NCBI RefSeq assembly: GCF_010119205.1
Contig: NZ_WRXM01000002.1
Location: forward strand, 22,982-54,981
From: Haloarcula limicola
GTDB taxonomy: Archaea; Halobacteriota; Halobacteria; Halobacteriales; Haloarculaceae
Reading direction: 5' to 3'
DNA: 32,000 nucleotides
Positions within the stretch are counted from its first letter, which is position 1; each line of letters begins with the position of its first letter. Shown one piece after another: positions 5,301 through 24,749 of this stretch. The translations under genes were made by a program, and so were the position numbers. The notes under the pieces are model-generated. The model saw only the letters and a program-made list of their open reading frames with translations, was not told the origin of the DNA and searched no databases.

Positions 5301-5545
5301 CACTTCAGGACCGTCACCTCGGTCACGGTACTCTTACCTGCGCCCGGTCCTGCCGTCAGGTGCAGTGGCCCTGTTTCGTGCCGGATGGCGGTTTCTTGGT
5401 CGTCGTCGAACGACCAGTTTGGGTCGTCGTTCTGGACCTGTCGCACCGCCCGCATGACCTCAAGGAACTCGTCGAGTTCGAGGTCATCCGGCGACGTTTC
5501 GGGTCCAGGTGTCGGGTGTTCGTCTGTCACGGTTGTGTGCCCCAA
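2315..5545 (-). CDS. UvrD/Rep/AddA-type SF1 helicase fused to a C-terminal RecB/Cas4-like PD-(D/E)xK nuclease with a 4-Cys cluster (1076 aa)
   Basis: All SF1A motifs are visible: AGPGAGKST (I), TFTEKAA (Ia), VDEYQDVNPLQ (II), VVGDDDQALYRFRGG (III), NYRSRPEIV (IV), TVHQAKGLEFPVVFL (V), YVAHSRAEDNLVLL (VI). The C-terminus carries FRRCKRQY, GVADVI, LCDYK, QLLVYAGLY and CDECDFRWDC (C...CxxCxxxxxC, as in AddB/Cas4 Fe-S nucleases). Confidence 0.9.
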   Translation of the reverse strand: MGHTTVTDEHPTPGPETSPDDLELDEFLEVMRAVRQVQNDDPNWSFDDDQETAIRHETGPLHLTAGPGAGKSTVTEVTVLKWLLVDGIPPGGIILTTFTEKAAENLEQRLERDLAALGYDDVFSVDELHVGTGHQLWGEIMRDYRFDDYRNVDLLDEDAQEMFIARHSEYVDVLADGDVATFRDVVPRMNDDGTCSKGAAATTAKRLFNRLSQLRVDVEALAESDRLEYRRLAEGYRDYLATLRDESRCDFARLQERFLAFLDTEAGQRFAQGDSEREEPPLQRIAVDEYQDVNPLQQAIYFRLAELMPDQVPTLVVVGDDDQALYRFRGGTVDCLIEFPERLSDYLGIDQDEIETQQLRWNYRSRPEIVEWVNRHIGYYPTMQVTGARAPGKEPLNAARDAVDHPSVHLLKEDNKAQAAAAFADQVQRLHAEGYVQDLNQVALLAHSTREYWPQWDNTTFVGECVNALEARDIPVHNPRNKGFVQHEEVQAMLAALAVCFDPDLQWAEDNVLPYGGLGDDFQEWLTTLDDVIERHDAKDLANYLEVTAARIRSAPSGSVADVSAVDLYNRIRSFEPFSTWTKDDGHVNRAKRLGKLSQLLEAFEGIAEGVTENRKLTRTSHDEYDTVSVRFLSDFYWTFGQYLQSKGLDDPEDQYDTFPSGHVQVMTVHQAKGLEFPVVFLASLERTAEKNYDVTDDGEVVPRVADLLSDYTDCTPPTDVPTRAERDQVRQFYVAHSRAEDNLVLLGTDYYLRGADGSTVLPSLGADASGPVGVDWFDADQRLDQEAELAPDGTTVGPPSTDDTRRTYSIVADVLSFRRCKRQYGYHTEHEFAAGSGTQLFAGLAVHQTLDWAHRYYNGDVDGVAEGTTPDEGKLRDEFDSVVESLRDQRIMPMGQDAVNAVFQHVKRFNAQIGPDLYPQVINTECKLRRNAGSFILTGVADVIADEAGHTKLCDYKASQRPNSGGGYLQDYREQLLVYAGLYAEKEDEYPDSAVLYFLGEEDPEATRLELDFTESEIRAAMSRFENTVTELEHVREHNDWDDLDDWDEDDLPDKATCDECDFRWDCDARDYDDR

Positions 5546-6598: not shown

Positions 6599-8950
6599 AT
6601 GAGTGAATCATCGGACCGAGCTGGACTCCCGAAATCAGTTGAGTATCAACCCCTCCCCAATATCTACCGTGCGTTCGCCGCAGGGGCCTCTCCATACGCG
6701 ATAGTATCCGAGACAATTGACAATTCGATCGACTTCGTCCGTCGACAGGCGTTAGATGGAGCTAAGTACCCAGATACGTTAAAAGTAGAAGTCCGATACG
6801 AACCCCCTTCTACTACCGAATCCGATGCGGAAAACTCGGCTGTTGATGATCAGAGTCCCGAGCGATTGATAATTGTTGATAATGCCGGCGGTGTTCCGCC
6901 GAACGAACTGGCCCGATTCTTTCAGTTAGGCCACACGGATGCTCCACCTGAGGGAATTGGGCGCTTCGGTGTCGGAGCGAAACGACTCATCGGTATTGGA
7001 GACCGTATCAAATACGAGTCACATGCGAATGGATACGAAGTTGCTGCGGGTTTCGAAGTGGATGCTCGAGATCTCAAAGCCACCGAAAATAACAAACTCG
7101 CCGACGACGATGTCTACCAATCGGATGTTTATCGAGTTGATGATTTAGAGGAAGGCCATACAAGAATCATCGTTGAAGATCTGAATGAAAACGTCTGGTC
7201 AAACCTGCTTGGACGAGACAGAGATGAGATTGACGAGAGGGCTAGCGATTCTCTCTGGCGACTTGGTGAGACATACGAGCACTTCCTTCGAAACGGAATT
7301 CACATCGCTGCTCCATCAAGTGAAACTGAAGGTTCTATCGAGTTCGAACTCAGTTGGTCTGGTCCTGAACACGGGGAACAAGTAGATGTCCCCAATCCAG
7401 TCCAACTTAGTTGGCTACCGCTCGATGGACTTCATCCGAGACGGTATGAGCGACTTCCCTTCGCGAATACTACCGAAATCGAATTAGAGGACGCTCTTCG
7501 GGCCGACATCACGGTGGCCTTAATGCCCTCGTCAAAGCCCAAAGATGCTGGGCTAACGGTAACGATGAATAACCGGAACGTACTGTTCCGAGACACCGAT
7601 AACGATTTGTTCTCTACTCGGTACCTTGGCAAATTCCGCGAATCACAAGGTCACGGTCGGCTGCATTGCGTCATCGAATTATATGGCCCGGCAGAGGATA
7701 TGCCTTGGTCTGATACGAAGGATGGCCTCGATGGAACTCAAGAGATAACCGATCATCTTCTTAATGTCACAGAAAATGCCCTTAGCGAATATCGACGTCA
7801 GACTTACGAAAATCTCCCAAAATGGATCTTAGCTGCCTACTCCGGCGAGGATATACAGACGTTTGACAACCACATTCGTGACGAGATCTCCGAAACCGTT
7901 GAAACAATCGACAAATCGAATTCAAAAGTCAATAGCCCTCGCTTCAATGAGAAACCCGGAAGTACCGCAACTGGCAAGTACTATCGGTTGTATCCCGAAC
8001 GAGATGGTCTCATCAAGCGCGTTCGGTTACACTCGGAACTCCGAATTCGAGCAGACGATTCAGTAGCGATTAAAGGACTACCTGCTTACCGGCGTTACTT
8101 CGAGACGGAATACGATCACGAGAGCATCACAGAGCTCTCTCCCAAAGAATGCCCTGACCCTGAGGACTTTGAGGTGCCAGTTTTCGCAGATAGTCCGAAC
8201 ACAATCCCGTTGATTGAGGACATCAAGAAACTCGCAGAGACTCACGCCGCCGAAGAGAGAGCAATTACAAATGAGACCGACGGAGTGCCTGCTTGGCTCT
8301 TGCCAAGGTACCAAGAGGAGTTCAAGCAGCACGGTACCACCCTTGAGTCAGCGACCACCATCGGCGAATTCGATTTCGACTCTTGGCGTGCCAAGCACTC
8401 TACATCAGAGGACGTGCGTCGAGGACCAGAGTTCTCTGAACCCGAATCAGAACCGAGCCCTGACCAGCCCGACTCTCCTGATAAACGCCCAACACGTAGT
8501 TCCCCAGCCGACCGGTTAATCGAATCATCAAGTGAAACGACAGGACGTTCATCATCCGGGAACCATGGGGGTAGTTCCAGTACAACTGAGACGTCGAAAG
8601 GTCAATCGTCTGAGGATAGTACGGACCTCTCCAACTTCCAGAGGAGTTCCGTTGTGTCTGACTCCGGGACTGAAGAAGCCAGTATCCCTGAGCGAGAAGT
8701 ACCATCTCCAGATTTTGATTCACAGCAACTTGAAGAACTTCGTAGTGTGTTGGAATTAGACGACGACGCATCCATGGCCACTGTTGTAGACACTGTACGG
8801 GAGCTACAGAGTGAACGTCAGAGGATACAGAATGAACGGAAGCAGCTCATTAACTACCTTGAGCAGCTCAGTGATGTTGTCAATTTTGAAATGATTTTTG
8901 ACGAACCCCCAGATCTTGAAGCGCTGAAAGAAGACAAAAACGAGCCTTGA
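6599..8950 (+). CDS. GHKL-superfamily (MORC/HATPase_c_3-like) ATPase with long C-terminal region, Ser/Glu-rich disordered linker and terminal coiled coil (783 aa)
   Basis: Bergerat-fold motifs are present: VSETIDNSIDF (N-box ExxxNxxD), IIVDNAGGVPPNEL (DxGxG) and GIGRFGVGAKRL (GxxGxG). A low-complexity S/T/E-rich stretch occurs near residues ~600-720. The end is heptad-like: VRELQSERQRIQNERKQLINYLEQL. Confidence 0.85.
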   Translation: MSESSDRAGLPKSVEYQPLPNIYRAFAAGASPYAIVSETIDNSIDFVRRQALDGAKYPDTLKVEVRYEPPSTTESDAENSAVDDQSPERLIIVDNAGGVPPNELARFFQLGHTDAPPEGIGRFGVGAKRLIGIGDRIKYESHANGYEVAAGFEVDARDLKATENNKLADDDVYQSDVYRVDDLEEGHTRIIVEDLNENVWSNLLGRDRDEIDERASDSLWRLGETYEHFLRNGIHIAAPSSETEGSIEFELSWSGPEHGEQVDVPNPVQLSWLPLDGLHPRRYERLPFANTTEIELEDALRADITVALMPSSKPKDAGLTVTMNNRNVLFRDTDNDLFSTRYLGKFRESQGHGRLHCVIELYGPAEDMPWSDTKDGLDGTQEITDHLLNVTENALSEYRRQTYENLPKWILAAYSGEDIQTFDNHIRDEISETVETIDKSNSKVNSPRFNEKPGSTATGKYYRLYPERDGLIKRVRLHSELRIRADDSVAIKGLPAYRRYFETEYDHESITELSPKECPDPEDFEVPVFADSPNTIPLIEDIKKLAETHAAEERAITNETDGVPAWLLPRYQEEFKQHGTTLESATTIGEFDFDSWRAKHSTSEDVRRGPEFSEPESEPSPDQPDSPDKRPTRSSPADRLIESSSETTGRSSSGNHGGSSSTTETSKGQSSEDSTDLSNFQRSSVVSDSGTEEASIPEREVPSPDFDSQQLEELRSVLELDDDASMATVVDTVRELQSERQRIQNERKQLINYLEQLSDVVNFEMIFDEPPDLEALKEDKNEP

Positions 8951-9043: not shown

Positions 9044-9790
9044 TTACTCAAAATCAGTCAGATCCGATTGGTCGGTCCAACCTCCTAAGTGAGCATATGC
9101 CTCTGGATTGTAGGGGACCCCCTCAGTGTTCAGTAGCAAATCAGGATACAGTTCCCATGCTAATGCAATAAGCTGTTGTTCGAGTTCTTCAAGGTATGGC
9201 GAGGCCCCCGTGTCTGGTGTATAGGGGCCTATATCGTCAACCTCCCAAGCTTTCATCCACAGATAGACATTCCGTTTGAGTCGACGAGACTTCGGCTCGA
9301 AAAGCGTCCGAATCCATCGCCCTTTTGAGGACCCTGGTGTCTCACCAGTGGATTCCCAAGCTGAATCGAAGTATGCCTGACTCAGACCGCCTAGATGAAA
9401 CGCAGTCCCATACCCCCATCTTGCGAACCGTGACTTCCGCTCCCGGATGTACTTTAAGTTTGGATTGAGTTTATACCCACTAGACGCGAACTTCCCCGAT
9501 TTTCCGATGTAGAGTGGGATTACATCTTTATTGGAGCCGAGCCAGTACATCACATAAATCACACCCTCGTACCGTTGCCCTCGTTCGTGGAAGTCGGTCT
9601 CAACATTTTCTGCCTGCTCAATGACCAGTCGCTCCATGGCCGCACTCCGCTTGAGAACATCGCGTTCGTGCGGTCCGTTTCCGAATTGCTCTGTCTGGAT
9701 CACACCATCGGCGTCAGTTTCGAACAGAGGGACGCTGTCGTCAAGATTGTGGATGTCCACCCATTGGGCCCAGACATCGGCCTTGCTCAT
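9044..9790 (-). CDS. GIY-YIG-family nuclease domain protein (248 aa)
   Basis: GVIYVMY followed 12 residues later by PLYIGKS gives the GIY...YIG pair. Downstream are Arg (RFARW), His (FHLGG), Glu (YLEELEQQLIALAWE) and Asn (LLNTEG), in the order expected for the GIY-YIG fold. Convergent with the GHKL ATPase gene. Confidence 0.65.
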   Translation of the reverse strand: MSKADVWAQWVDIHNLDDSVPLFETDADGVIQTEQFGNGPHERDVLKRSAAMERLVIEQAENVETDFHERGQRYEGVIYVMYWLGSNKDVIPLYIGKSGKFASSGYKLNPNLKYIRERKSRFARWGYGTAFHLGGLSQAYFDSAWESTGETPGSSKGRWIRTLFEPKSRRLKRNVYLWMKAWEVDDIGPYTPDTGASPYLEELEQQLIALAWELYPDLLLNTEGVPYNPEAYAHLGGWTDQSDLTDFE

Positions 9791-9968: not shown

Positions 9969-10541
9969 TTACCAAAGGTTAGGTCCACGGCTTCCACGAC
10001 GACCAATAACAAGTGAAAAGGTGAGTACCAGCACGATGCCAGCACCACCTAACAGCCACAATTGCTCTGGCGGTTGAACCTCTTGATAGGCTAAGTATCC
10101 CTGAATCAGTGCCGTCGCTGCCAGCAACCCAGTAGCCAGGGTTAGAACAACGTCTATTTTTCGACTCTCCGAACGCCACTTATCCTCTTTTTGGGTCCGG
10201 TACCAATCATGAGCTACCCGGTATCCCTCCTCAGTCAATCGATATACCACGAAATCTGTGTCTTCGAAGGGTCTGAGGTAGTGAACCAGTCCTTCATCCA
10301 GAAGGTGATTAAGTTCGATTATCGCCTGGTCTTCGGTAAGCTCTGTCTCTGTAAGTAGTTTGGAATCGGTCGAGAGGCTCTCTACCACGTCATATCTGTC
10401 TTCAGACATGTGTTCGGGTACCGTCATATGGCTCAAACTGACGACAACATCTGTCTCATACAGAACCTGAAGGACGTTAACCCAACCACGTGTTACCCAT
10501 TTCTCACCGTCAACGGTCCTTTCCATCAGTAAGTTCGTCAA
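9969..10541 (-). CDS. Membrane-anchored protein: N-terminal winged-helix-like domain plus two C-terminal TM helices (190 aa)
   Basis: The stretch LNHLLDEGLVHYLRPFEDTDFVVYRLTEEGYRVAHDW is wHTH-like. Two hydrophobic spans follow: VVLTLATGLLAATALIQGYLAY and LWLLGGAGIVLVLTFSLVI. Confidence 0.65.
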   Translation of the reverse strand: MTNLLMERTVDGEKWVTRGWVNVLQVLYETDVVVSLSHMTVPEHMSEDRYDVVESLSTDSKLLTETELTEDQAIIELNHLLDEGLVHYLRPFEDTDFVVYRLTEEGYRVAHDWYRTQKEDKWRSESRKIDVVLTLATGLLAATALIQGYLAYQEVQPPEQLWLLGGAGIVLVLTFSLVIGRRGSRGPNLW

Positions 10542-10645: not shown

Positions 10646-11806
10646 CTAATCAGATATCATCGTTTCCCCCAGTTCTCGTCCTACTCGAGTCTGTTGACGG
10701 TCCGCCGCTACGTCAAGCAGACGACTGCACAGCGATAGTACCTGCCGAACGTTACCCTGAGAACGCTGATGAACCCATTGTAAGCATTCCTCCTCGAACG
10801 GGGCGATTCCTCCAGTCCCATCTACTCGAGCGGTATCTAAATACGAGGCCACCAAGTCGGTGAGGTGTTCGTCTGTCAACGGACGCAACGCTACCTCCTG
10901 ACCGATCCGTTCAGAGAAGGCATGGTACTCACTCATCACGTCTTGCCACACCTCTGGTGCACAGGCAAACAGCAGACAGAGGCCGTGACTATTCTGGTCC
11001 ATCAGATGACGGATGCTATTTAGCGTCGCCTGTTCGTCCTTCGGCGACAGCCGGGCAATACTTTCGAACTCGTCAACAAAGACGAACACACCGGTATACC
11101 CCAGCTCAAGGAGGATATTCTTTAGAGCAGTGAACGCCCGAACGCTCGTCGTGTCGTCGTCGAGGGCGCTATGAATCTCCATTTCCTTCCGTTGCTCGTA
11201 GCGGATTCCTTCGGCGGTCAGCCACTGCCAAGCGTAGAGGTTAGTATCTTCGTACACCATGTGAACGATCGCTCGTGAGAAGTCCGCAAACTGGGTAACT
11301 GTATTAAGCCGTTGGATAGCTGTTGGAATAATCTCCGAGAGCAGCAGTTCGCCCTCGTCGATTAACTCACACATCTCATCGGGCCTGGATGGATGCCAGT
11401 CAGTAATATCTGAGGTAATATGAGCGAGATACTCGTACGCGAGTTGCTGCACTCGATCAAACCCTAGATCGTAGAGGAACTCGTGGTAGATATCACGGAA
11501 TCCCTCCCCGGGTTGGGCGACGTAACCGACGAGTACGTCGTCGCGATCACGGACCAGTGACCGTGTGTACTTGAGCGTATGTGACTTCCCGTTACCGTAT
11601 TTGGCTGTGACGACAAGGTGTTTCGACTTCCCGGTACTGAGCATCGTAGAGACTGTGTCGCTAATTCGCTTCGCTGCGTGTTCCTGTCCGCAGTATATCT
11701 CCGGGTCGTTTTTCGGAACAGGACTGTAGGGGAAAGGATTCTCCTCCAAGTTGAACTGGGAGTAATCGCGCTGTTCGTCGGTAATGGTGAAACCGTTGTC
11801 AGTCAT
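10646..11806 (-). CDS. P-loop NTPase (AAA/ORC-Cdc6-like or DUF2791/BrxC-like Walker ATPase), 386 aa
   Basis: I prefer the ATG at 11806, 2 nt after the upstream stop, to the track start at 11881, which would overlap by 83 nt. Visible motifs are N-terminal NPFPY, Walker A AKYGNGKSHT and Walker B GVFVFVDEFE. Confidence 0.8.
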   Translation of the reverse strand: MTDNGFTITDEQRDYSQFNLEENPFPYSPVPKNDPEIYCGQEHAAKRISDTVSTMLSTGKSKHLVVTAKYGNGKSHTLKYTRSLVRDRDDVLVGYVAQPGEGFRDIYHEFLYDLGFDRVQQLAYEYLAHITSDITDWHPSRPDEMCELIDEGELLLSEIIPTAIQRLNTVTQFADFSRAIVHMVYEDTNLYAWQWLTAEGIRYEQRKEMEIHSALDDDTTSVRAFTALKNILLELGYTGVFVFVDEFESIARLSPKDEQATLNSIRHLMDQNSHGLCLLFACAPEVWQDVMSEYHAFSERIGQEVALRPLTDEHLTDLVASYLDTARVDGTGGIAPFEEECLQWVHQRSQGNVRQVLSLCSRLLDVAADRQQTRVGRELGETMISD

Positions 11807-12698
11807 CGTTGTTTGGATCGTATTCGAGGTCACGGTCGTGGACCGCGAGATAGTAGTATCGCTTGCCGAACTGTTCGACACCGCGCATCACTTTGTCGGT
11901 CGACTGATTAGTAGAAACGAGACTACCGCTATCGGCGATCGTCATGGATTTGATGCCGAGTTTCGCATCTTTGGCTACCGTATCCACGGGGGCGCCCGAC
12001 AGCTCTACTCGTCCGACATTCTGCTCTGCAAGACGAACCAGAGCTTTGTCGAAGGGATCGCGTGGACACGTAAACTGCTCACAGTAGTGCTCGCGCAGCT
12101 TCGGGATTGAAAGATAGCGTTGTCTTAGTGACACTCCCCCAGTCTCCTCCAAATCGTCGAATACTGACAACAGATGGTCGGTGAAGCTGGACGTGACGCT
12201 GTCGCGTTCAACTGGATAGTAAGTACCGGTGAACGCGTTGCGCTGGATACGTCCGAGACGTTCGCCCCAGTCACCGAGAACCTCAACGCTCGTCTGATTA
12301 TATGTCCGTCCGGTGCTTTGCTCTCGTGTCTGTAGATCTCTAAGGATTGTTTCTAGATCGGTTGGTGCAGTCTCCTTGAGTGACTGAAGGAGTGCCCTGT
12401 AGTGGGGGCTCTGTGCCTCCAAGATATTGTTGACTCGGTCCCAGTTCTCATCCCGAACTGCCTTGACGAGATCGACGCCTATCTGGGTCGCCAGAAACCA
12501 CGTCTCGGAATCCTCAGGATTATGTTCGTCAATCAGGCCGACACGCAGCGCTTCAAGAATTGTCTCGCGTGCTCGTCGGTGGCTGACGTTCAATGCAGCC
12601 TCGATTTCAGCAGTCGTTTGGCTTTCGCCTTTACAGGCATGGGTCACCTCAATAAGGCGAGCAAGAGTAACCGGTCGCACCGTGGGACGCTCGCTCAT
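11799..12698 (-). CDS. wHTH-domain protein of unknown function (299 aa)
   Basis: The N-terminus TLARLIEVTHACKGESQTTAEIEAALNVSHRRARETILEALRVGLID is a typical winged helix. The C-terminal ~200 aa are unrecognised. Its ATG overlaps the stop of the upstream TGT-like gene (ATGA at 12695-12698). Confidence 0.75.
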   Translation of the reverse strand: MSERPTVRPVTLARLIEVTHACKGESQTTAEIEAALNVSHRRARETILEALRVGLIDEHNPEDSETWFLATQIGVDLVKAVRDENWDRVNNILEAQSPHYRALLQSLKETAPTDLETILRDLQTREQSTGRTYNQTSVEVLGDWGERLGRIQRNAFTGTYYPVERDSVTSSFTDHLLSVFDDLEETGGVSLRQRYLSIPKLREHYCEQFTCPRDPFDKALVRLAEQNVGRVELSGAPVDTVAKDAKLGIKSMTIADSGSLVSTNQSTDKVMRGVEQFGKRYYYLAVHDRDLEYDPNNDD

Positions 12699-13762
12699 GT
12701 GAACCTCCGAACTTGCTGTTTCGCCATTTGATATGCTCGCTGAGTCACCTCATTGTGCTCGAACCGAAGGTCGAGATACGCCTCGATATCGTAATCGCCT
12801 GCGACCATGTACCGGAACCGACGAAGTTCAGTCACCAGCGACCAGAGGTTGTGTTGCGTCAGCAGATTCCGGTCCTTGCGTATGGTCGACAGCGGTCGTG
12901 AGCAGCAGACTGGGCACGAACATGGTAGATGCTCTAATTCCTCGATGCTATGGAGTTCCGTACCGCCGAATCCTGGAACAAGGTAGTTTCGATTGCCTGC
13001 GCTCCGGATGAATGCCGATGAGTCGAAACTATCGACGCCTAGATACAGCAACAGCGGCTGATAGACAATGCCACCTAACCCGTAAACGTGGAGATGCTTG
13101 TCCGTAACTCGTCGAGCAGACAGTATTAGTTTGGTTACTTTCTTGTAATCTGTCCTAATCGGCACTAAGCTACCGAGAGCATATCCGTCGAAGTCCCCTT
13201 TACGTTCGAGATATCGGAGTGTGTTCCGGATTGTTTTGGGATCGTGCCCATGAACACTGGCGAAAAGAAGTGCCTCTCCTTCGTGAGCATCGCTTGCTTG
13301 GAGTGCATATGTTGTACTCTCCTCAATTCGCTGTTGGTTCTCTACTGCCCGATTTTCGGGTGAGAGAGGTCGGTCAAGCGTCCCATAAATGTCTGCATCA
13401 AGTTGCCGTTGTGTTTCCAGTACTTGCTTTGGTGTAGTGTCGACTTCTTTGGAACGATAATCGAACCCACCGCTGTCGGCGTACAGAATAGTCTTACTAG
13501 GAACGCCCATCTCCTCACGTATCGTAGCCCCCTCGAGAAGACGATCCCACTGTGGACCACGCTGGCGGATTGCTCTGGTGTTTACCATTGCAGTCCGGAG
13601 GTCAGGTATACTGTCGGCGTACTCTGGGGTATTATCGCTCGACCGTTTTCCGATATTGCGGACTGGAAAGAGCACTGGTGTCTCCAGCGGCCCGTGCGGT
13701 GTCTTGAGCGTGCGGTGTCGGTACAGCATGGCGGCGCGCTTCGATAAGCTGGCGAGGCTCAT
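12695..13762 (-). CDS. TGT-superfamily transglycosylase, catalytic-core-only (arcTGT/DpdA-like), 355 aa
   Basis: TGT landmarks appear in order: ETPVLFPV (TPxFxPV), YADSGGFDY (DSGGFQ nucleophile motif), GTLDRPL, GYALGSL, LHVYGLGG, GVDSFDSSAFIRSAGNR and the Zn site CSCPVC...H (LTQHNL). No PUA or C-terminal tRNA-binding domains are present. I prefer the ATG at 13762 to the TTG at 13825; the ATG at 13729 is an alternative. Confidence 0.85.
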   Translation of the reverse strand: MSLASLSKRAAMLYRHRTLKTPHGPLETPVLFPVRNIGKRSSDNTPEYADSIPDLRTAMVNTRAIRQRGPQWDRLLEGATIREEMGVPSKTILYADSGGFDYRSKEVDTTPKQVLETQRQLDADIYGTLDRPLSPENRAVENQQRIEESTTYALQASDAHEGEALLFASVHGHDPKTIRNTLRYLERKGDFDGYALGSLVPIRTDYKKVTKLILSARRVTDKHLHVYGLGGIVYQPLLLYLGVDSFDSSAFIRSAGNRNYLVPGFGGTELHSIEELEHLPCSCPVCCSRPLSTIRKDRNLLTQHNLWSLVTELRRFRYMVAGDYDIEAYLDLRFEHNEVTQRAYQMAKQQVRRFT

Positions 13763-13766
13763 AAAA

Positions 13767-13784
13767 GGTTGGTTCAGACCAACC
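13767..13784. promoter_or_regulatory. Perfect 7-4-7 palindrome GGTTGGT-tcag-ACCAACC in the divergent promoter region (candidate operator)
   Basis: Read directly from the sequence. It lies 5 bp upstream of the 13762 start of the TGT-like gene and ~55 bp upstream of the HxlR-type gene. A TATA-like tatgtataat at ~13806-13815 sits ~25-30 bp before the 13839 ATG, a leaderless arrangement. Confidence 0.4.
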
Positions 13785-13838
13785 CAAACTGCAGATAATC
13801 CGGAGTATGTATAATGACCCACCAATCAGTACGGGGTG

Positions 13839-14117
13839 ATGTATAACGAGGTTCGGTCAGTGGTTGAATCAAAATGGTCGATAAAGATCCTATCGTCGCT
13901 GTCAGAGGAGAGTCCACAGAATTTCTCGACGGTTCAGGAGCAGTTCGATACCTCGAACGATGTCATCACTGATAGACTGAGACTCCTTGCCGAGTACGAT
14001 CTCATTGATCGGAGAGAGCATACTCGTAGAGATGTTCGGTATAGCATCACTAAGCGTGGTGAACGATTCCTTGATGAACTGAGGGATCTCAATTCATTAC
14101 TCAGGAAGGGACTCTGA
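13839..14117 (+). CDS. HxlR-type winged-helix transcriptional regulator (92 aa)
   Basis: SKWSIKILSSLSEESPQNFSTVQEQF...ITDRLRLLAEYDLIDRREH...VRYSITKRGERFL matches the HxlR/DUF24 pattern (W-x-x-x-IL...F-x-E/T...L-x-x-L...R...Y-x-LT-x-x-G). It is embedded in opposite orientation between the two TGT-containing operons. Confidence 0.8.
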   Translation: MYNEVRSVVESKWSIKILSSLSEESPQNFSTVQEQFDTSNDVITDRLRLLAEYDLIDRREHTRRDVRYSITKRGERFLDELRDLNSLLRKGL

Positions 14118-14134
14118 ACAGATCCACTGGCCTA

Positions 14135-14842
14135 CTACTGGTAGTCGCCCAACCCACTCTGTGTTGTGGGTTCAGTCGTTAGATACTGAGCCAACTTCTC
14201 CAGGCACTCTACGCGTTTCCCCTCACTACGATGTGCAGCGAAGTTCTGAAGATAGCGGCCCTTGAGGGCGACGACGATTGTGCCATGTTCCTTCGCTTCT
14301 GCTAGCCGAGCAGAAATCGATATGACGTTATCGCGATCCACGGCGAGACTCTCTTGATTGAATACGACACCCGTCGTCTCGGTCGGAAGTGCATTGAGAA
14401 CTTCTTCAAGGTCACACGCGCGGTAGTAGTCGCTACCGAGGGCCAGAACGACGAGGTCGTATGGTGGGTCCGTCTGTACGGCGTCACGGACGTTCTGCGG
14501 AATTCCTAACTTGATCGCACGTTCGTCAATCTCGGTCGCAGTCATATCAGAGAACGTAATGTCGTACGGCGGTAACTCGGTGTCTTCGTCAACGAGGCCA
14601 AACCCTGCACTAATGTAGACTCGATTAACCGTATCTCCGCTCTCTCGGAGATGATCAACGGCGAAGTCAATGTACTGCTGCTGGCGTCCGGTGTATAATT
14701 GTCTTGCCGGAATACCCTGAACCTTATCTCTCTCAAGTAAGGCCTCGCGATCGTATTGGTCGATTTCAGCGGCATCGAACTCGGATACGTTCTCTGGGTT
14801 ATCTTTAGAGCCAGAACACTGGCCGACGATGAGTACACGCAT
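14135..14842 (-). CDS. DUF6884-like protein (235 aa), function unknown
   Basis: N-terminal IVGQCSGSKD followed by IPARQLYTGRQQQY resembles the C-x-x-x-K ... A-x-x-LY-x-G signature I associate with DUF6884 (recollection only, not verified). Its start is 2 nt after the stop of the 739-aa TGT-like gene, so the two are tightly coupled. Confidence 0.6.
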   Translation of the reverse strand: MRVLIVGQCSGSKDNPENVSEFDAAEIDQYDREALLERDKVQGIPARQLYTGRQQQYIDFAVDHLRESGDTVNRVYISAGFGLVDEDTELPPYDITFSDMTATEIDERAIKLGIPQNVRDAVQTDPPYDLVVLALGSDYYRACDLEEVLNALPTETTGVVFNQESLAVDRDNVISISARLAEAKEHGTIVVALKGRYLQNFAAHRSEGKRVECLEKLAQYLTTEPTTQSGLGDYQ

Positions 14843-14844
14843 GG

Positions 14845-17064
14845 TTAGTAGTCGGTCAGTCCGGATTGCATGAGATGCTGTGGGAGGAATTCGTCTTCGT
14901 ACCCGAGGCGTTCGAGAACGCCGTCTCGAATGCTTGCGGGGTTGGTGTGTTCATGTACCGTGCAGTTGACGTCCTCAAGCCGACTGCGAGTTGCTTCGTC
15001 CAGCTCTAAGTGCCGAGCGTCGACGAAAATATCCTGATACCGCTCACCTTCGGTGACAAGGACGTCGGCTAGGCCGTTGGAGTCGAACGATGCTGTCTCT
15101 GGACGGTTAGCCCACCACTCGTGCAATCCGGTTGCCGACACAGCCCCGATTTCGGCGACAGGGAGGTCGTGAACACTACCCCAGAACGTCGGTCGATCGT
15201 TACGGAGATATCTCTCCATAGTTCCCTGTCCCATCACAGACGCAGATGGACGCGTCACGACGAGAATTTTCGGGAGATCACCCTCGAATTGGTCATAGAA
15301 TCGCCGAGTATTGTGGAATCCACGGCGCCGATTACGGTTATTCCCTCGAAAGATTGCGACTTCGATTCCGTTCCGTGTACAGATTGGACAGTCACACCGT
15401 TTCCAAGGCTTGGCGTTGAGAAGGTCACGGTAATCGTCCAGAAGGTTTGCATCGCTGATCGGGTCCCAGGTCGCGTACGCCTCGACGAGGGGCCACAACG
15501 CGTTGATAGTGCCTGGCGTCTCTGACTCTCGTTCCACAACGACATCGAGCAACGTTGGTGTCCAATCGGTGAATACTTTCTCTGCAACTGCAACCAGGTC
15601 ATCGTACTCGGTGAACGGGATCGGGTTCTCGGGATCATCGTCACGGAGAAGTTTGATCAACTTCGAACTCAGCGGGTCACCGAAACTCGCCCGGAACGCA
15701 CGCCCGTGGTCGTAGCCCGAACGGAATGCCTCTTCAGTTTCTTTGATGTACGCCACGTCATACCGCTCGTCGTGCCGGTGCTCGAGAAGGTACTCCGTGA
15801 TCTCACTGAGAGCTTGTGTCGCTCGGTTGTGCCATGTCTGAAGTGCATCTGCAATCGGCTCGTTATTGTCGAACGCCCGGAGGGCATACAACATCTCCTG
15901 CCCTCGAAGAGCCTTCTCGATACTCGTTTGGAGGTCGTCTCGATAGCTCGGGTACCGGACGCGAATCGCGTCATAGCGCTCGTCGCTGTCGAGATGGTAA
16001 TTCTGTCCCCCTGTCCACGCTGCACGGAGCATGCTTGCGCTGTCGAAACTCGTCATACCACTACGACCGATGGTCTCGAAAGCACCGCTCTTGGCGAATC
16101 CAAAGACGTGGGTGTCGATGCGAGTCTCGTGCGTTCGTTCGAAGCTCTTGATTTCGTTCCCAACGGCACTCACGATATCTTTGACTGCACTCTCCGGACT
16201 TCCAGCGACACCACCGATACCAAGATACTGATACCCAAGATCGAGAACTTCCTTGGTCGCGTTTACGTACGATTCACAGTCCCAACCCTGCACAGCGGAC
16301 ATCAGTCGGAACGAGTAATCCCCTTCCTCGTACCGTTTGCGCATATCGCGAGCATTGCGGAGCGTGAGATCGTACCGATACTGCATATCGTCGGCCCGAT
16401 AGACTGCCCGAGGGTCGCTACGGAGATGTGCAATGATCTCCTCGACATCCCCCTCGAAATCAGTTCGTGTGAATGGCTCGATAGTCGAGACGTGATATAT
16501 GGAGGGTTCTTCTTCCGCGACATACGAAGGCCATCTGCGGCTAGAACTGCCATCGCCGTTGGGCCACGTATCGATCATGACGTCGAGTTCCTCGGTCACC
16601 TCCTCGGGGATGTCACCTTTGCTAAAGTCCCCGCTGAAAGCACGCTCATTGAGATAGAGGCGAGCAGTATGGCCCGCCCCAAGGACGAGGTGGTCAATCG
16701 TCACACCTGTAGTCACGCCGAGCTGCTCGTAGAACTCAAGCATCTCGCCGTTGTCGTACGGTGGGAAGGGGAGAGATTTGTAGCCCCACGCACCACAATC
16801 GCTGATCGTCGGGAGCCATCTAGGCAGGTCCAGTTTGGATGCGTCGTAAATTCCGTTCTCGGTCAATCGCTGTGCCTTAGTCGAACTCTCCTCTGCCTGT
16901 TCTCTCGAGATGAGGACGCCGTCGATCGGAGTGTTCTTCCTGTCGAATAAGTCCCAAATATACGCTAGATCACGCTCATCGGTCCCGAGCGTCGAGTGTT
17001 CGTCGTGGAGAAAATCGTAGTTCGCGTCAACCCGATCATCCCACTCGGGAACGTAGAACCGCAC
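14845..17064 (-). CDS. Large TGT-superfamily protein (DpdA-like core with insertions and ~150-aa C-terminal extension), 739 aa
   Basis: GTG start. The N-terminus is MRFYVPEWDDRVDANYDFLHDE. TGT-like landmarks are ISDCGAWGY (equivalent of DSGGF), SAVQGW, YLGIGGVAGSP, TSFDSASMLRAAWTG and the Zn site CDCPIC...FHN. About 190 residues are inserted between the FDSAS motif and the Zn site, and there is an unrecognised tail after it. Confidence 0.85.
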   Translation of the reverse strand: MRFYVPEWDDRVDANYDFLHDEHSTLGTDERDLAYIWDLFDRKNTPIDGVLISREQAEESSTKAQRLTENGIYDASKLDLPRWLPTISDCGAWGYKSLPFPPYDNGEMLEFYEQLGVTTGVTIDHLVLGAGHTARLYLNERAFSGDFSKGDIPEEVTEELDVMIDTWPNGDGSSSRRWPSYVAEEEPSIYHVSTIEPFTRTDFEGDVEEIIAHLRSDPRAVYRADDMQYRYDLTLRNARDMRKRYEEGDYSFRLMSAVQGWDCESYVNATKEVLDLGYQYLGIGGVAGSPESAVKDIVSAVGNEIKSFERTHETRIDTHVFGFAKSGAFETIGRSGMTSFDSASMLRAAWTGGQNYHLDSDERYDAIRVRYPSYRDDLQTSIEKALRGQEMLYALRAFDNNEPIADALQTWHNRATQALSEITEYLLEHRHDERYDVAYIKETEEAFRSGYDHGRAFRASFGDPLSSKLIKLLRDDDPENPIPFTEYDDLVAVAEKVFTDWTPTLLDVVVERESETPGTINALWPLVEAYATWDPISDANLLDDYRDLLNAKPWKRCDCPICTRNGIEVAIFRGNNRNRRRGFHNTRRFYDQFEGDLPKILVVTRPSASVMGQGTMERYLRNDRPTFWGSVHDLPVAEIGAVSATGLHEWWANRPETASFDSNGLADVLVTEGERYQDIFVDARHLELDEATRSRLEDVNCTVHEHTNPASIRDGVLERLGYEDEFLPQHLMQSGLTDY

Positions 17065-17229: not shown

Positions 17230-17520
17230 CTAATTAGTGGAACCTGCGTGCTTGATTTTGCCGTTTCTGGTGAAGATGATTACTACACCTAGTCTAGCAC
17301 TGAGGACGCCGACTGGCCGGTAGAGGATGTTTCGCGGGTCGAAAACGTAGATGAAGCCCGTGTGATCCTCTATCCAGATGCCAAGACCTTCATCTGTGAA
17401 ATATCCGCGGATGGGGAGGAACACAATCAGGGTCCAGTTCGTTGCTACTGTGAGTGAGAGGAAGTCTATAGGTGGTCCATCTTCACTGAGTACCGTATGT
17501 TTATATGCTATCTGAACCAT
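17230..17520 (-). CDS. Hypothetical protein (96 aa), uncertain
   Basis: ATG-initiated ORF on the same strand as, and upstream of, the 739-aa gene. It has one hydrophobic stretch (WTLIVFLPI) and no recognisable motif. Its start is only 8 bp from the divergent queD start, which is awkward for promoters. Confidence 0.3.
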   Translation of the reverse strand: MVQIAYKHTVLSEDGPPIDFLSLTVATNWTLIVFLPIRGYFTDEGLGIWIEDHTGFIYVFDPRNILYRPVGVLSARLGVVIIFTRNGKIKHAGSTN

Positions 17521-17528
17521 CGGTGAGT

Positions 17529-18003
17529 ATGCCCGAGATAGCTTCAGGAGAATACTCCAGTAATATCTCCCTTGACGAGGCGGGCGAGCGGACCCTCCAC
17601 GTCGGTCGTGAGTGTCCTAACCGAATCAGTTCGGGGCACCGCATCCGCTACCATGACGGGAAGTGCTCCCGCCCACACGGGCACAATTACGAAATTTCAG
17701 TGACGGTCACCGGCGAAATCAGCGAGGAGGGGTGGATCGTCGACAAGGGCGACGTTACGGCCATCATCAGCGAGTGGGACCACCGTTTTTTACTCGGAAA
17801 AAGGTGACCTGCTCATTGAGGCATTTGAACGGTCGGGAGATGGTGACGCTGTTGTGGTCCTCAATCAGCCACCAACAGCAGAGGTGATGGCTGCGGTCCT
17901 CGAGCAACGTATGATAGAGGCGTTCCCCGAGAACGTCTCTGAGGTCTCTGTGGAAGTAGCCGAGACAAGAAGCGGGAACTCGGAGCCAACCGTTAATACG
18001 TAG
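17529..18003 (+). pseudogene. queD: queD (6-carboxy-5,6,7,8-tetrahydropterin synthase) interrupted by a +1 frameshift in an A5 run at 17798-17802
   Basis: Frame 0 reads ...ISSGHRIRYHDGKCSRPHGHNYEISVTVTGEISEEGWIVDKGDVTAIISEWDHRFLLGKR*, giving the QueD motifs C-x3-HGH-x-Y and DH-x-x-L. The +1 frame from 17803 continues GDLLIEAFERSGDGDAVVVLNQPPTAEVMAAVLEQRM...VSVEVAETRSGN...*, giving the QueD C-terminal PTxE and ET motifs, and stops at 18001-18003. Deleting one A restores a single ORF. An ATG at 17505 is an alternative start. Confidence 0.75.
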
Positions 18004-18700: not shown

Positions 18701-19483
18701 CTATCCCATATTTCGATAGTGACCTGCTGCTCTGGCCACCTCGGCATAGGAAGCCTGACCCATCCCAAAAAACGGCGTATGGATAAGGTGGACTGAGTCG
18801 TCATCAACTGTGAGTTTGTAGAGTTCGTAAGAGGTCGAGCGCTCGGTCGAGACCAGCGTCTCAACCTTCTCACTGGGATAATGGTTCAAAAGGACCTCTG
18901 GTGTCGGGTTGGTGTTCGTGTTCCCGTAGGAAACGATGCACCTTACACCGTTGCTCTCTTCGATAGCATCCGTCAGGAGATGTTCTCGTCCTGGAATCAC
19001 CTCTCTGTGGTATGCGGCCTCAGACTTCCAGATGTGGTCGTAGGGTTCAATCGTATCCAGGCTCTTCGGGAGTGGAAAGAACTCTCCGGTGAGGCTATCC
19101 CCGCCTCGCCGACCAAGCCGTTTGTTCTCAAATACGTATTCCTTAGCTCTTCTCCCGAGCGTCGCTGACGACTCCTCTAATAGTGATGGATCTTCTAGTG
19201 TCATCATGAACACCGCTTGGAATCTCCACGTTGACGGTCCAGAGAACTTCTCCAAGGCAAATCCATGCTTTTCCTCCCATACCTGTTTAAAGTCCTCTGT
19301 CAGTCCGAACTCCCGCCTTAACCTCAAGAAGTCCTCTACGTCGTCTACGTTGTTGAACCCCTCCCATCGATAGAGGCTTTCTTCGATTCCAATGAACCAA
19401 TACGGGCTGTCGAGACTACCATATCCGAGCCAGTTGTAGAGACAATCCCGAACTAAGGGTTCTGGGAGTTCAGACATGGGCAT
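18701..19483 (-). CDS. Hypothetical protein (260 aa); speculative UDG-superfamily-like pattern
   Basis: I prefer the ATG at 19483 or 19477, just after the upstream stop at 19470-19472, to the track start at 19555. The series WFIGIEES ... TGEFFPLPKS ... VRCIVSYG ... HTPFFG loosely recalls the motif A / motif B spacing of uracil-DNA-glycosylase-fold proteins. This is a very weak call. Confidence 0.6.
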   Translation of the reverse strand: MPMSELPEPLVRDCLYNWLGYGSLDSPYWFIGIEESLYRWEGFNNVDDVEDFLRLRREFGLTEDFKQVWEEKHGFALEKFSGPSTWRFQAVFMMTLEDPSLLEESSATLGRRAKEYVFENKRLGRRGGDSLTGEFFPLPKSLDTIEPYDHIWKSEAAYHREVIPGREHLLTDAIEESNGVRCIVSYGNTNTNPTPEVLLNHYPSEKVETLVSTERSTSYELYKLTVDDDSVHLIHTPFFGMGQASYAEVARAAGHYRNMG

Positions 19484-20225
19484 CTGGACAAACGTCGTTG
19501 TATTCGCACGCTCGGCACTTCGCCGCTTTCTCCGTTGGAATCGGCTCCCGCTCATTTCGCCAATATCCGAGAGCCCAGTTGAGGTCCTCCAGATACTCTA
19601 CCTTTGAGAACTCAGAAAGATGCAGGATGGCCGTCGGAGACTCAGTCAGTTCGTGGTCACCGGTCTCCCACCCCTCGTAACTTGCCATCACTAACTGCTG
19701 GAGTTCCTTTCCTGTCCCCGGTTCTAGTGATTGCTCGTGGCTAAGGACGGCAATCCTCAGATTGTCGGTGTGGAAGCCGAGACTGTCAAGAATGAAACCG
19801 TACAGCCATGCCTGGATTCGCTGGTTCTTGTAGAGGTAGTCAGGCCTCGACGTCGTCTTTCGTTCAAAGATAAGCTGCGGGCTCTGATTCTCAAAGAGAA
19901 CGGCGTCCGGAATACCACCGATGAGGAATTCCGCTGCCTCGCCAATGAAGGGACTCTCGACGATAACCTGGCGCTCACCTCTCTCTAAAGCCCGCCAAAA
20001 TTCCTCGTCAGAGACTTCTTCAGAGTCCTCGGCTGCTTTCTCGTGGGTTTCGCTCCCACGGGTCTTTGCAGGTGTTTCAATGTCCCCGTGCTCCCGAGTG
20101 AGCGCGACCTGCTTCTCGCAATAGAATTGCCCCGCAATTTTGCTCGGCGCCAGCGACGACTCCTCTGACTCAGATAGCTGCTTGACGAGCGAAGTATGCT
20201 TCTCTCGGACCCTCTCAATGCTCAT
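19470..20225 (-). CDS. Cas4/RecB-like PD-(D/E)xK nuclease with 4-Cys cluster (251 aa), not associated with CRISPR
   Basis: Visible motifs: N-terminal FYCEKQ (Cys1), GIPDAV...LIFERKTT (D...ExK), QIQAWLYGFIL (QxxxY) and C-terminal CRACEYNDVC (CxxCxxxxxC). No cas genes or repeats are nearby. Confidence 0.8.
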   Translation of the reverse strand: MSIERVREKHTSLVKQLSESEESSLAPSKIAGQFYCEKQVALTREHGDIETPAKTRGSETHEKAAEDSEEVSDEEFWRALERGERQVIVESPFIGEAAEFLIGGIPDAVLFENQSPQLIFERKTTSRPDYLYKNQRIQAWLYGFILDSLGFHTDNLRIAVLSHEQSLEPGTGKELQQLVMASYEGWETGDHELTESPTAILHLSEFSKVEYLEDLNWALGYWRNEREPIPTEKAAKCRACEYNDVCPDAHV

Positions 20226-23504: not shown

Positions 23505-24749
23505 TCAGGGCCGGTACTTCTTTTCTGCTTCTTTTATGTCCTCCTTCCTGAAGCGCAAGTATTCGCGGGTCTGAGTGATATCCGAATGTCCTAATAAATC
23601 CGACAAGAAAACAATCGGCATACCATTCCGAACGCGATGCACAGCAAACGAGTGCCGGAACGCATGCGCAGTGACGGTATTGCGTGTCGTACCCGCTGCA
23701 TTCGGCCCCTTATCCACTTTCGCTTGGATACCCGCTTCCTCAGCGTAGTCATGAATAATCTCTGTCGGGCGATTCGGATGCAGATCTTCGCTTGATTCAC
23801 CAAGAATCAAATAGTCGGACTCATTCGCACGCAAATACCCATTCCTCGTGCCTCCTTCCAACCACTTCTTCAGCGTTCGCTCCACCGACGGTGGATAGTA
23901 CACCATTCGATCTTCGTAACCATCCTGCTTGGCCGTCTCAATCTTAATCGACCGATCCTTCCCACCCCCGCCGTTGTCGTCATCCCCATTAAAGTCGGTA
24001 ATATCACTCACTCGAATGTTCACCAGCTCTTGTGCCCTAACACCGCAATTCCACAAGATTTGAACGATGAGCAAATCACGAGTATCATCGATCACATCCA
24101 GCAATTTCTCGTAATCCTCGATCTCAATATACCGAATCTCCTTGTACGTTTCCGATCGCGATACCCCCATATCGAATTCATCCCGCTGCACCGGATTCTC
24201 GTCAACAACACCCTTCTTCACCAGATATCCAAACAACGCAGAGAGATCATACACTCGGTTCTGGACCGACCCCTCTGAATACCCATGCAGTAGTTGATGA
24301 TCGACAAAATCCTCAACTGCAATCATCGTCGGTTCGAGAAAGTCTACGTTCTGCACGAGACTGTACACCATGTAGTGTCGATACGCGCTTTGCCGGTTCT
24401 GGAGTGTCTGCTTCGAGAAGTGCGCCTTCACCCGTAAGTCGAGATAGTTCTGCACCGGATCGGGGAAATCGAAATCAACCTCATTGAACTCTTCCCGCTC
24501 TTCCTTAGTCGGATTAGTAGATTCGAACCGTTCAAGTCGCTGCTCTAAGTGATTCCGGATGGGTGTCGGGAGCGTGATGTACTCCTTGAGCTCGTCCAGA
24601 TCTCGTACTCGTTTCGCGCGAGCACCGAGTATGGTGTACGGGCCGCGAGGATCGTCGTCTGAGACGGGAGGTTCGTCCGGTTTTTTAGCGGTCTTAGGCA
24701 CTGTCCTCACCCGATGAATCGTTGGATCGGTCGAACTTCTCCAACTCAC
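23505..24749 (-). CDS. Tyrosine recombinase / phage-type integrase (XerC/D-like), up to 414 aa
   Basis: C-terminal catalytic signature: GVRAQEL (Arg), AHAFRHSFAVH (HxxR) and LLGHSDITQTREYL (His...Tyr). An N-terminal SAM-like core-binding region is present. The start is uncertain: the GTG at 24749 overlaps the upstream gene by 56 nt, and GTGs at ~24710 and 24701 are alternatives. Confidence 0.9.
   Translation of the reverse strand: MSWRSSTDPTIHRVRTVPKTAKKPDEPPVSDDDPRGPYTILGARAKRVRDLDELKEYITLPTPIRNHLEQRLERFESTNPTKEEREEFNEVDFDFPDPVQNYLDLRVKAHFSKQTLQNRQSAYRHYMVYSLVQNVDFLEPTMIAVEDFVDHQLLHGYSEGSVQNRVYDLSALFGYLVKKGVVDENPVQRDEFDMGVSRSETYKEIRYIEIEDYEKLLDVIDDTRDLLIVQILWNCGVRAQELVNIRVSDITDFNGDDDNGGGGKDRSIKIETAKQDGYEDRMVYYPPSVERTLKKWLEGGTRNGYLRANESDYLILGESSEDLHPNRPTEIIHDYAEEAGIQAKVDKGPNAAGTTRNTVTAHAFRHSFAVHRVRNGMPIVFLSDLLGHSDITQTREYLRFRKEDIKEAEKKYRP

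Follow-up and report, generated by a model that had tools for sequence, protein, structure and literature searches.

The window analysed here, a stretch of 32,000 nucleotides of contig NZ_WRXM01000002.1 of the archaeon Haloarcula limicola, carries two genes for transglycosylases of the TGT superfamily: dpdA and a smaller gene, denoted TGT2. The domain identities of the encoded proteins, their intact active sites, the operon structure, the conservation and co-occurrence of the genes across related loci and the absence of DpdB lend good support to the interpretation that these genes belong to a conserved, DpdB-less archaeal variant of the Dpd machinery for 7-deazaguanine modification of DNA, in which both transglycosylases would be competent enzymes. 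Besides DpdA and TGT2, the module comprises a DUF6884/DpdC-like domain, a tandem winged-helix protein (p299) and an AAA+ ATPase.

The larger transglycosylase (739 residues; 14845..17064, minus strand) begins with MRFYVPEWDDRVDANYDF and contains the motifs SDCGAW, FDS and CDCPIC...H. It is a DpdA of the bacterial type: it scores 278.4 bits on the NCBIfam model NF041059 (cut-off 200), in three stretches owing to insertions, and is also matched by the PADLOC DpdA models. DpdA of Salmonella Montevideo (PDB ID: 7UI4), a DNA preQ0 insertase, is its top match in the PDB both by sequence and by fold (fold E-value 2e-10). In the alignment with this structure, D89, D124 and D341 coincide with Asp95, Asp130 and Asp256 of the Salmonella enzyme, and the zinc site C557/C559/C562...H584 with its CxCx2Cx22H motif. 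All of these residues, as well as Q259, are invariant in 27 homologues. Q259, which is part of a QGW motif, is the counterpart of Salmonella His181; a glutamine is also found in tRNA TGTs, and the exchange is probably functionally equivalent. The first-pass annotation of this DNA had described SDCGAW as a variant nucleophile motif. It is instead the standard motif of bacterial DpdA (GDCGAF in the Salmonella Montevideo enzyme) and holds the general acid/base, Asp95, whereas the nucleophile is the aspartate of FDS (Asp256).

The alignment with 7UI4 locates three additions in the haloarchaeal protein, of 82 residues at 132-227, 105 residues at 392-540 and a C-terminal domain of 145 residues, in place of the single insertion of about 190 residues before the zinc site that had been proposed. 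Compact archaeal homologues score 274-310 bits on NF041059 in a single full-length stretch without insertions. Since these distant archaeal DpdAs match the model from end to end, the roughly 330 extra residues are best regarded as a haloarchaeal elaboration. The C-terminal extension (residues 595-739; 14848..15282, minus strand) is conserved, with invariant W628, H632 and E649-W650-W651. It forms an alpha/beta domain in the predicted model, in which residues 600-720 are well modelled, and serves as the linker to DUF6884 in fused proteins. Its earlier description as unrecognised stands: neither this domain nor either insertion has a Pfam match, and no convincing fold match was obtained for the domain.

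The gene at 14135..14842 (minus strand) encodes a DUF6884/DpdC-like protein of 235 residues with a YaaA-related fold. Its match to Pfam DUF6884 (2e-6) is below the cut-off, compact homologues scoring 66-75 bits, and its match to the PADLOC DpdC model (8.6e-10) is confined to the N-terminal third. The Pfam curators relate DUF6884 to YaaA/DUF328, the family of DpdC, and the motifs CxxxK and SAGFG (defined in PMC11701544) are at least 95% conserved. In most relatives the domain is fused to the C-terminus of DpdA, giving a protein of about 965 residues, and fused forms are present in 27 genome loci. The split form seen in the window is common to its whole clade, and is therefore no frameshift accident. 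It had been suggested that one of the two transglycosylases inserts the base and the other derivatises it; the obvious candidate for the derivatising step would instead be the DUF6884/DpdC-like protein, whose gene lies between those of the two transglycosylases in the window and whose domain is joined to DpdA in most relatives.

The open reading frame of TGT2 (12695..13825, minus strand) corresponds to 376 residues. In about 120 orthologues and in the NCBI annotation the protein begins with MLYRHRT at 13729, so that the gene spans 12695..13729 and the product has 344 residues, not the 355 originally assigned from an ATG at 13762. The description of a canonical-looking TGT core is borne out by the motifs ETPVLFPV, DSGGF, YGLGG, FDS and CSCPVC...H and by matches to Pfam PF01702 (1.2e-29; 103.9 bits against a cut-off of 26.3) and TIGR00449 (84 bits against 47.6). 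PF01702 is the sole Pfam match; DUF6610 (PF20314), found in viral DpdA4, was not detected. The catalytic core resembles that of the archaeal tRNA enzyme arcTGT: aligned with Pyrococcus horikoshii arcTGT, residues D95, D130 and D249 and the zinc site are conserved, and the corresponding D85, D119, D236 and C270/C272/C275/H293 are invariant across the TGT2 family. TGT2 nevertheless reaches 137 bits on the arcTGT model TIGR00432, far below the cut-off of 350, and 43.9 bits on the ArcS model NF040592 (cut-off 440).

The two transglycosylases were noted from the start as very different, and a profile-profile comparison of the two families (hhalign) gives a probability of only 14% over 133 columns. 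As the families are barely alignable, DpdA and TGT2 appear to be two ancient, separate branches of the TGT superfamily rather than recent duplicates. The notion that one paralogue is a decaying duplicate without function, for which no supporting point was found, was rejected on this ground, on the invariant active sites and on the clade-wide nature of the DpdA/DUF6884 split. Both families are strongly conserved, with pocket residues intact in each protein and catalytic and zinc residues invariant within each family across dozens of species; the chance of this explanation is next to nil. The suggestion that one of the proteins is a catalytically altered reader likewise finds no counterpart in the residues, as neither active-site pocket appears altered.

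TGT2 ends directly after the catalytic core and lacks the C1-C3/PUA domains with which arcTGT binds tRNA; it belongs to a compact family distinct from the arcTGTs, which have 480-680 residues. Among the module proteins it is consistently the least acidic (pI 8.2 in the window), a modest indication of direct nucleic-acid binding. It has been considered whether TGT2 is an island-borne variant of arcTGT that modifies tRNA or another RNA, leaving DpdA as the only enzyme that acts on DNA. The closest characterised relative of TGT2 is indeed tRNA arcTGT, and a short TGT of Methanofastidiosa, 34% identical, is found in a housekeeping context, which indicates that the TGT2 family grades into short tRNA enzymes. 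On the other hand, the tRNA-binding domains are missing, the family stands apart from the full-length arcTGTs, and the gene, which is carried beside dpdA on islands and plasmids, is placed in an overlapping operon with those of a winged helix-turn-helix (wHTH) protein and an ORC-type ATPase. We regard an RNA target as highly improbable. A phage-type DpdA identity for TGT2 was also rejected: the top tblastn match to phage DpdA shows 25% identity (E-value 1e-6), proteins of jumbo phages and STSV show 25-26% over part of the sequence, and no relative of TGT2 was found among the IMG/VR viral contigs.

TGT2 opens an operon of three genes in which stop and start codons overlap. The start of the p299 gene (11799..12698, minus strand) overlaps the TGT2 stop, and the ATPase gene (10646..11803, minus strand; the open reading frame reaches 11881) overlaps the end of p299, an arrangement from which translational coupling of the three genes would be expected. 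p299 (299 residues) has no Pfam family. Its AlphaFold2 model (pLDDT 83, pTM 0.80) consists of three tandem winged-helix domains, and Foldseek matches it to the multi-wHTH proteins RPC62 and SelB-C and also to MarR. The N-terminus of p299 is strikingly conserved, and its counterpart in a distant locus, L052 (related loci are numbered with the prefix L), belongs to the same family (hhalign E-value 5e-45). The ATPase (385 residues) is of the ORC/Cdc6 type and scores 54 bits on Pfam BrxC_BrxD (cut-off 22), with invariant Walker A (GNGKSH) and Walker B (DEFE) motifs. It is not the BrxD of BREX: it scores 46 bits on NCBIfam NF033438 against a cut-off of 350, and no BREX genes are nearby, such as the PglW and BrxHI genes of a type 2 context. 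A gene for an HxlR-like winged-helix regulator (93 residues; 13836..14117, plus strand; Pfam HxlR 32.3 bits against a cut-off of 20.8) is divergent from the TGT2 operon. Homologues are placed likewise in 8 genome loci and in 31 loci from metagenomes, about 40 related loci that include the distant L040 and L041, and in the distant L140; the protein is probably a sixth, optional component of the module that regulates the TGT2 operon. As the DUF6884 gene and this divergent gene lie between them, dpdA and TGT2 are separate transcription units in the window. Directly downstream of the ATPase are genes for two proteins without family, of 248 residues (9044..9790, minus strand) and of 190 residues with a hydrophobic C-terminus (9969..10541, minus strand); neither is conserved across the related loci.

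The pairing of the two transglycosylases recurs across dozens of species and in metagenomes. A scan of one genome per species returned 46 loci, all in Halobacteria; with the window and two loci that were looked up separately, 49 loci were compared. Both TGTs are present in 42. In 37 of these, DpdA (with DUF6884) lies directly upstream of TGT2-p299-ATPase on the same strand, as a fusion in 26 loci and split in 11, and in five DpdA is elsewhere within 10 kb. The remaining loci have no DpdA within 10 kb (four), are limited by the contig (one) or are decayed (two). A metagenome scan seeded with the ATPase alignment, from which the best 80 of 208 matches were taken, gave 41 loci with enough upstream sequence, 40 of which contain TGT2, p299 and DpdA; this set held close haloarchaeal relatives only, with no new distant variants. 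All nine haloarchaeal plasmids that carry one TGT also carry the other. The association is far beyond chance.

Loci of the Halorubrum type retain the TGT2 operon with que genes and yhhQ, and dpdA is unlinked; in the Halorubrum and Halopenitus loci no dpdA lies within 10 kb. In Halopenitus persicus, two loci (L008 and L048) are about 17 kb apart on contig NZ_FNPC01000014.1: at one, the TGT2-p297-ATPase operon is intact and accompanied by que genes, without DpdA; at the other, DpdA and DUF6884 are intact beside remnants of TGT2 and the ATPase, so that the two halves of the module appear to be kept in trans. In Halorubrum distributum, DpdA-DUF6884 is on another contig. Genomes with TGT2 alone were thus not established, since in these cases the same contig or species carries dpdA-DUF6884 elsewhere.

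In a search of 1.84 billion cluster representatives only 22 clusters reach an E-value below 1e-30 with TGT2; next come proteins of about 345 residues that are 33-40% identical, and after these the full-length arcTGTs. The distant variants of the module were obtained by looking up distant TGT2 clusters. The five-domain set is found with permuted gene order in L041, L051, L052/53, L141 and L142, with TGT2 identities of 34-55%. On a Bathyarchaeia-like contig (L051) the order is TGT2-p286-ATPase-[DpdA-DUF6884, 558 residues], in L052/53 it is TGT2-p281-ATPase-[DpdA-DUF6884, 577 residues], and in L041 TGT2-p287-ATPase-[DpdA-DUF6884, 563 residues]-folE-queD-queE-queC; L140-L142 hold further variants. 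L140, a metagenomic contig (1..17038), has three or four TGT-family genes in 17 kb: TGT2 directly before DpdA-DUF6884 and, on the opposite strand, genes for a TGT of 418 residues, a protein of 309 residues, an AAA_22 ATPase and another TGT of at least 387 residues. It also carries Vut_1 and a DUF5591-like (ArcS-type) gene. Small proteins with a weak match to DUF5591, the catalytic domain of ArcS, are encoded upstream of the non-halophilic modules in L051 (4058..4735) and L140 (3758..4420), which hints that some versions may derivatise the inserted base further, towards an archaeosine-like product.

Comparison of the distance matrices of the module proteins from 38 loci separates two blocks. 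The correlation between DpdA and DUF6884 is 0.94 and that among TGT2, p299 and the ATPase 0.89-0.91; between the blocks it is 0.71-0.83. The mean distance is small, 0.21-0.22, for the slowly evolving TGT2 and ATPase, and larger, 0.36-0.40, for the faster DpdA, DUF6884 and p299. Judged from these sequence distances, the module appears to consist of two co-evolving units, DpdA/DUF6884 and TGT2/p299/ATPase.

In bacteria, Salmonella DpdA needs the DGQHR/ParB-like ATPase DpdB to insert preQ0, after which DpdC makes dADG (2'-deoxy-7-amido-7-deazaguanosine; PMC10164549). No DpdB was found in the window with the NCBIfam and PADLOC models, and tblastn with three DpdB/DndB proteins found none in about 2 Mb of related loci, save one weak DndB-like match in L017. 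This absence, the dependence of bacterial DpdA on an ATPase and the near-obligate co-occurrence of the two units would suit a model in which DpdA requires a loading complex made up of TGT2, p299 and the ATPase, a substitute for DpdB, with TGT2 as a partner subunit in the manner of QTRT2 with QTRT1 that writes no mark of its own; a second small TGT with ATPases also recurs in DpdB-less cyanobacterial clusters. TGT2, however, has no catalytic or zinc residue missing and shows the strongest conservation among the module proteins, in contrast to QTRT2, which is non-catalytic; it has evolved more in step with p299 and the ATPase than with DpdA; and the Halorubrum-type loci keep its operon with que genes and yhhQ while dpdA is unlinked. 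A purely auxiliary role for TGT2 therefore seems rather unlikely.

The genes for preQ0 synthesis flank the module in most loci (queD-queE-folE-queC), with a YhhQ/Vut_1 or QueT transporter in some. The window holds a truncated QueD (PTPS) gene of 100 residues (17505..17807, plus strand; Pfam PTPS 4e-14), divergent from dpdA, which covers positions 7-68 of the 121 of the PTPS profile and is 63% identical to QueD of L001. It is to all appearances a relic, the sole remnant here of the queD-queE-folE-queC cluster, and no QueC is encoded in the island; the island must therefore rely on preQ0 of the host.

The conserved N-terminus of p299 raises the question of whether TGT2 handles a deazaguanine in covalent linkage to a partner protein, by binding or transferring it. 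Type IV CBASS offers the precedent: its Cap10 shows that the TGT fold can be re-used for protein-linked 7-deazaguanine. No CD-NTase with an M(G/S)G(G/S)GG N-terminus, no glycine-rich N-terminal motif of this kind and no dedicated Cap9 were found in the window or the related loci. Where QueC lies nearby, the complete set of FolE, QueD and QueE accompanies it, and the island of the window has no QueC at all. A role of this kind is a very remote prospect.

Taken together, we give about an even chance to a Dpd-like machine in which DpdA and DUF6884 write the base ADG (7-amido-7-deazaguanine), with TGT2, p299 and the ATPase as a second DNA transglycosylase unit, driven by ATP, in the place of DpdB. 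In the first unit, DpdA would insert preQ0, drawn from the adjacent que genes in most loci and from the archaeosine pathway of the host in this island, and the DUF6884/DpdC-like domain would convert it to ADG. In the second, p299 would pick the DNA site, the AAA+ ATPase would supply ATP-dependent distortion of the DNA, as DpdB does in bacteria, and TGT2 would insert preQ0 or a close derivative at a site, strand or context of its own. The proposal of the first-pass annotation that the two transglycosylases differ in sequence or structure specificity is viable and forms part of this explanation. The neighbouring helicase-nuclease genes would be the likely, interchangeable restriction partners.

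These neighbours vary from locus to locus. In the window, a gene for a UvrD helicase fused to a PD-(D/E)xK nuclease (1076 residues; 2315..5545, minus strand; Pfam UvrD-helicase, UvrD_C, PDDEXK_1) is accompanied by one for a GHKL-type ATPase (783 residues; 6599..8950, plus strand) with a long, acidic, serine-rich tail and a match to HATPase_c_3 (7e-5) below the cut-off. No PADLOC Dpd match beyond DpdA and DpdC was found in the window, and the restriction genes DpdD-K were not detected. Homologues of the UvrD-PD-(D/E)xK protein adjoin the module in L040, L059, L122 and L128, split UvrD and PDDEXK genes do so in L141, and weak homologues of the GHKL ATPase in L029 and L040. Other neighbours are a giant DEAD helicase with PLD in L142, as in the classical cyanobacterial dpd cluster, Dna2-like and DEAD/ResIII proteins in L052, and GmrSD or Mrr in L001/L002. 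They look like interchangeable restriction arms in loose association with the module. The UvrD-PD-(D/E)xK protein of the window is a candidate for such an arm, although its association is partial, with the GHKL ATPase as a possible partner; the two may form the restriction arm or a separate defence system. In some haloarchaeal loci a protein of about 410 residues without family is encoded next to the module, either directly following the ATPase or adjoining queC (L001, 2996..4252, minus strand; L007, 13142..14368; L019, L099, L107 and others).

Defence could also be the task of the second unit itself. DpdA-DUF6884 would then mark self DNA, and TGT2 with its wHTH and AAA+ partners would scan incoming DNA and probe or attack unmodified guanine at the sites that are marked in self DNA; the means would be a covalent adduct, an abasic site or a harmful base, and the unit would serve as the arm that discriminates self from non-self or as the effector. 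Self sites would be immune, since the TGT mechanism cannot excise 7-deazaguanine. Restriction-modification logic predicts obligate pairing, an ATPase with a DNA-binding partner is suited to scanning, and in cyanobacteria a small TGT lies between two helicases where classical clusters have a helicase and PLD; defence by glycosylase-type enzymes is, moreover, an established principle (bioRxiv 10.1101/2025.10.29.685425). The reaction of a TGT, however, is a base exchange, and its intermediate would be resolved without harm by free guanine or preQ0. The separate helicase-nuclease genes beside many modules are likelier effectors, and in the loci where the TGT2 operon is intact and dpdA is absent within 10 kb, the operon would poison its own host unless dpdA worked in trans. 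We consider an effector role of TGT2 distinctly unlikely. A role as an eraser of viral deazaguanines was set aside on chemical grounds: insertion of 7-deazaguanine by a TGT is regarded as irreversible, as the base has no N7 to protonate. Glycosylases other than TGTs can remove 7-deazaguanines (bioRxiv 10.1101/2025.10.29.685425).

Several observations weigh against the preferred explanation, in which two units write independently. Independent writers would be expected to occur alone fairly often; since the pairing is near-obligate, interdependence, be it as helper or as writer and effector, fits at least as well. The block structure of the distance matrices could stem from recombination breakpoints instead of function. 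The similarity of TGT2 to tRNA arcTGT exceeds that to all known phage DpdAs that act on DNA, and for all archaeal members the activities are ones that we infer. The predicted model of DpdA is poor over residues 1-130 (pLDDT below 35) despite their high conservation, and because of this the pocket was judged from the sequence rather than in three dimensions. Finally, a gene of the Pfam DndB family lies alongside the TGT2 operon in L141, which, with the weak match in L017, means that a replacement of DpdB by the TGT2 unit is not absolute.

Both TGT genes are located on an integrated mobile island; TGT2, p299 and DpdA show 100% identity to annotated proteins of H. limicola. The GC content is 48-64% from position 1 to about 25,000 and 64-72% further right, with a step from about 0.51 to 0.64-0.72 at about 25 kb, and a tyrosine integrase gene (23505..24749, minus strand; Pfam Phage_integrase 2.4e-21) marks the right edge of the low-GC region. 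Related copies of the module are found on haloarchaeal plasmids. The island also contains a gene for a Cas4/Exo5-like PD-(D/E)xK protein of 251 residues with a C-terminal cysteine cluster (19470..20225, minus strand), which overlaps the start of a gene for a protein of 284 residues without family (18701..19555, minus strand). Further small open reading frames between this pair and the integrase are island cargo.

To our knowledge, 7-deazaguanines in cellular DNA are confined to bacterial Dpd systems, and in archaea they occur in viruses only. If the proposed explanation is true, the module would be the first cellular archaeal system for 7-deazaguanine modification of DNA, and a common one, present in dozens of haloarchaeal species and on their plasmids as well as in Bathyarchaeia-like and other lineages. 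As a natural experiment, it would bear on the way in which a base-exchange enzyme with a TIM barrel comes to reach duplex DNA with the help of ATP, and it raises the question of why two such transglycosylases are needed. The enzymes might be of use for site-directed labelling of DNA. There is also a bearing on the biology of haloarchaeal viruses and their hosts, as the host on which HVTV-1, a virus whose DNA contains preQ1, was grown is a carrier of the module. Hutinet 2019 reported a DpdA homologue (EMA11768) on contig AOLQ01000002 of Haloarcula vallismortis, proposed it as a possible source of the HVTV-1 DNA modification and detected small amounts of dADG in the DNA of virus grown on this host; a viral DpdA4 was then found (Hutinet 2023). 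That contig is the one on which module locus L025 lies.

Among known systems, arcTGT (TgtA; P. horikoshii, PDB ID: 1IQ8) shares with TGT2 the catalytic core, the equivalents of D95, D130 and D249, the GxxVP pocket loop and the zinc site. TGT2 differs in its low score on the arcTGT model (137 against 350 bits), in the absence of C1-C3/PUA and in being island-borne with DNA-binding and ATPase partners rather than a housekeeping gene. The phage and virus proteins DpdA1-4 (Hutinet 2019, 2023), including the arcTGT-like DpdA of Sulfolobus virus STSV2, are minimal TGT cores like TGT2 and act on DNA, which shows that DNA can be the substrate of a small TGT that lacks tRNA-binding domains. They differ from TGT2 in sequence (25-26% identity over part of the protein) and work without an AAA+/wHTH operon.

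A second, independent two-TGT arrangement is found on the cyanobacterial plasmids pNOS3756_2 of Nostoc NIES-3756 (L134, 7854..16371) and of Picosynechococcus PCC 73109 (L135, 1074..9403). Both encode a DUF6884-DpdA fusion with a DEAD helicase, a small TGT of 307-315 residues and a second DEAD helicase, and no DpdB. The likeness to the archaeal module lies in the DpdA/DUF6884 fusion, the second minimal TGT with intact aspartates among ATPases and the lack of DpdB; the differences are DEAD-box helicases in place of the AAA+ protein, a small TGT without the zinc motif, the reversed order of the fusion and the absence of a wHTH protein. In the classical cluster of Allocoleopsis PCC 7113, which has a DndB-like DpdB together with a large helicase and PLD, there is no second TGT. 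Within this small cyanobacterial sample, the clusters that lack DpdB are those with a second minimal TGT among ATPases. No description of the clusters with DUF6884-DpdA and helicase-TGT-helicase was found in the literature searched.

The HerA-centred BREX-related capture (BRC) systems with TGT and GNAT, described in a 2026 BREX survey (PMC12839542), also combine a TGT homologue with an ORC/Cdc6-type AAA+ protein and a tripartite DNA-binder, and their authors likewise propose the NTPase as a DpdB substitute. They stand in a defence context without DpdA, DpdB or DpdC, have a single TGT and are built on HerA/FtsK, a translocase universal among them, PglZ, STAND and DUF4007; none of HerA/FtsK, PglZ, a STAND NTPase or DUF4007 was detected among the window proteins, and the archaeal module has instead a bona fide DpdA and DpdC-like protein.

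The earlier statement that no described system pairs two such paralogues agrees with our reading of the literature: no description of the two-TGT module, of its wHTH and AAA+ partners or of the archaeal DpdA-DUF6884 fusion was found in the papers searched, a set without the founding 2016 PNAS paper. The closest likeness is to the modification part of the bacterial Dpd system (DpdA/DpdB/DpdC) of Salmonella Montevideo (Thiaville 2016; Yuan 2018; Gedara 2023, PMC10164549). Shared with it are an enzyme of the bacterial DpdA family with the same zinc site (CxCxxC...H) and the same two catalytic aspartates, a YaaA-like domain related to DpdC, neighbouring genes for preQ0 synthesis, a location on mobile islands or plasmids and helicase and nuclease neighbours. 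In contrast with the bacterial system, which has DpdB, the archaeal module lacks this ATPase, has a shorter DUF6884 domain, usually fused to DpdA, instead of DpdC, and includes an additional arcTGT-like transglycosylase, a triple-wHTH protein and an ORC/Cdc6-type AAA+ ATPase; its hosts are archaeal, and the haloarchaeal DpdA differs from the Salmonella enzyme by its some 330 extra residues and the change of His181 to glutamine. The two-TGT module is apparently a widespread, previously undescribed, DpdB-less relative of Dpd.

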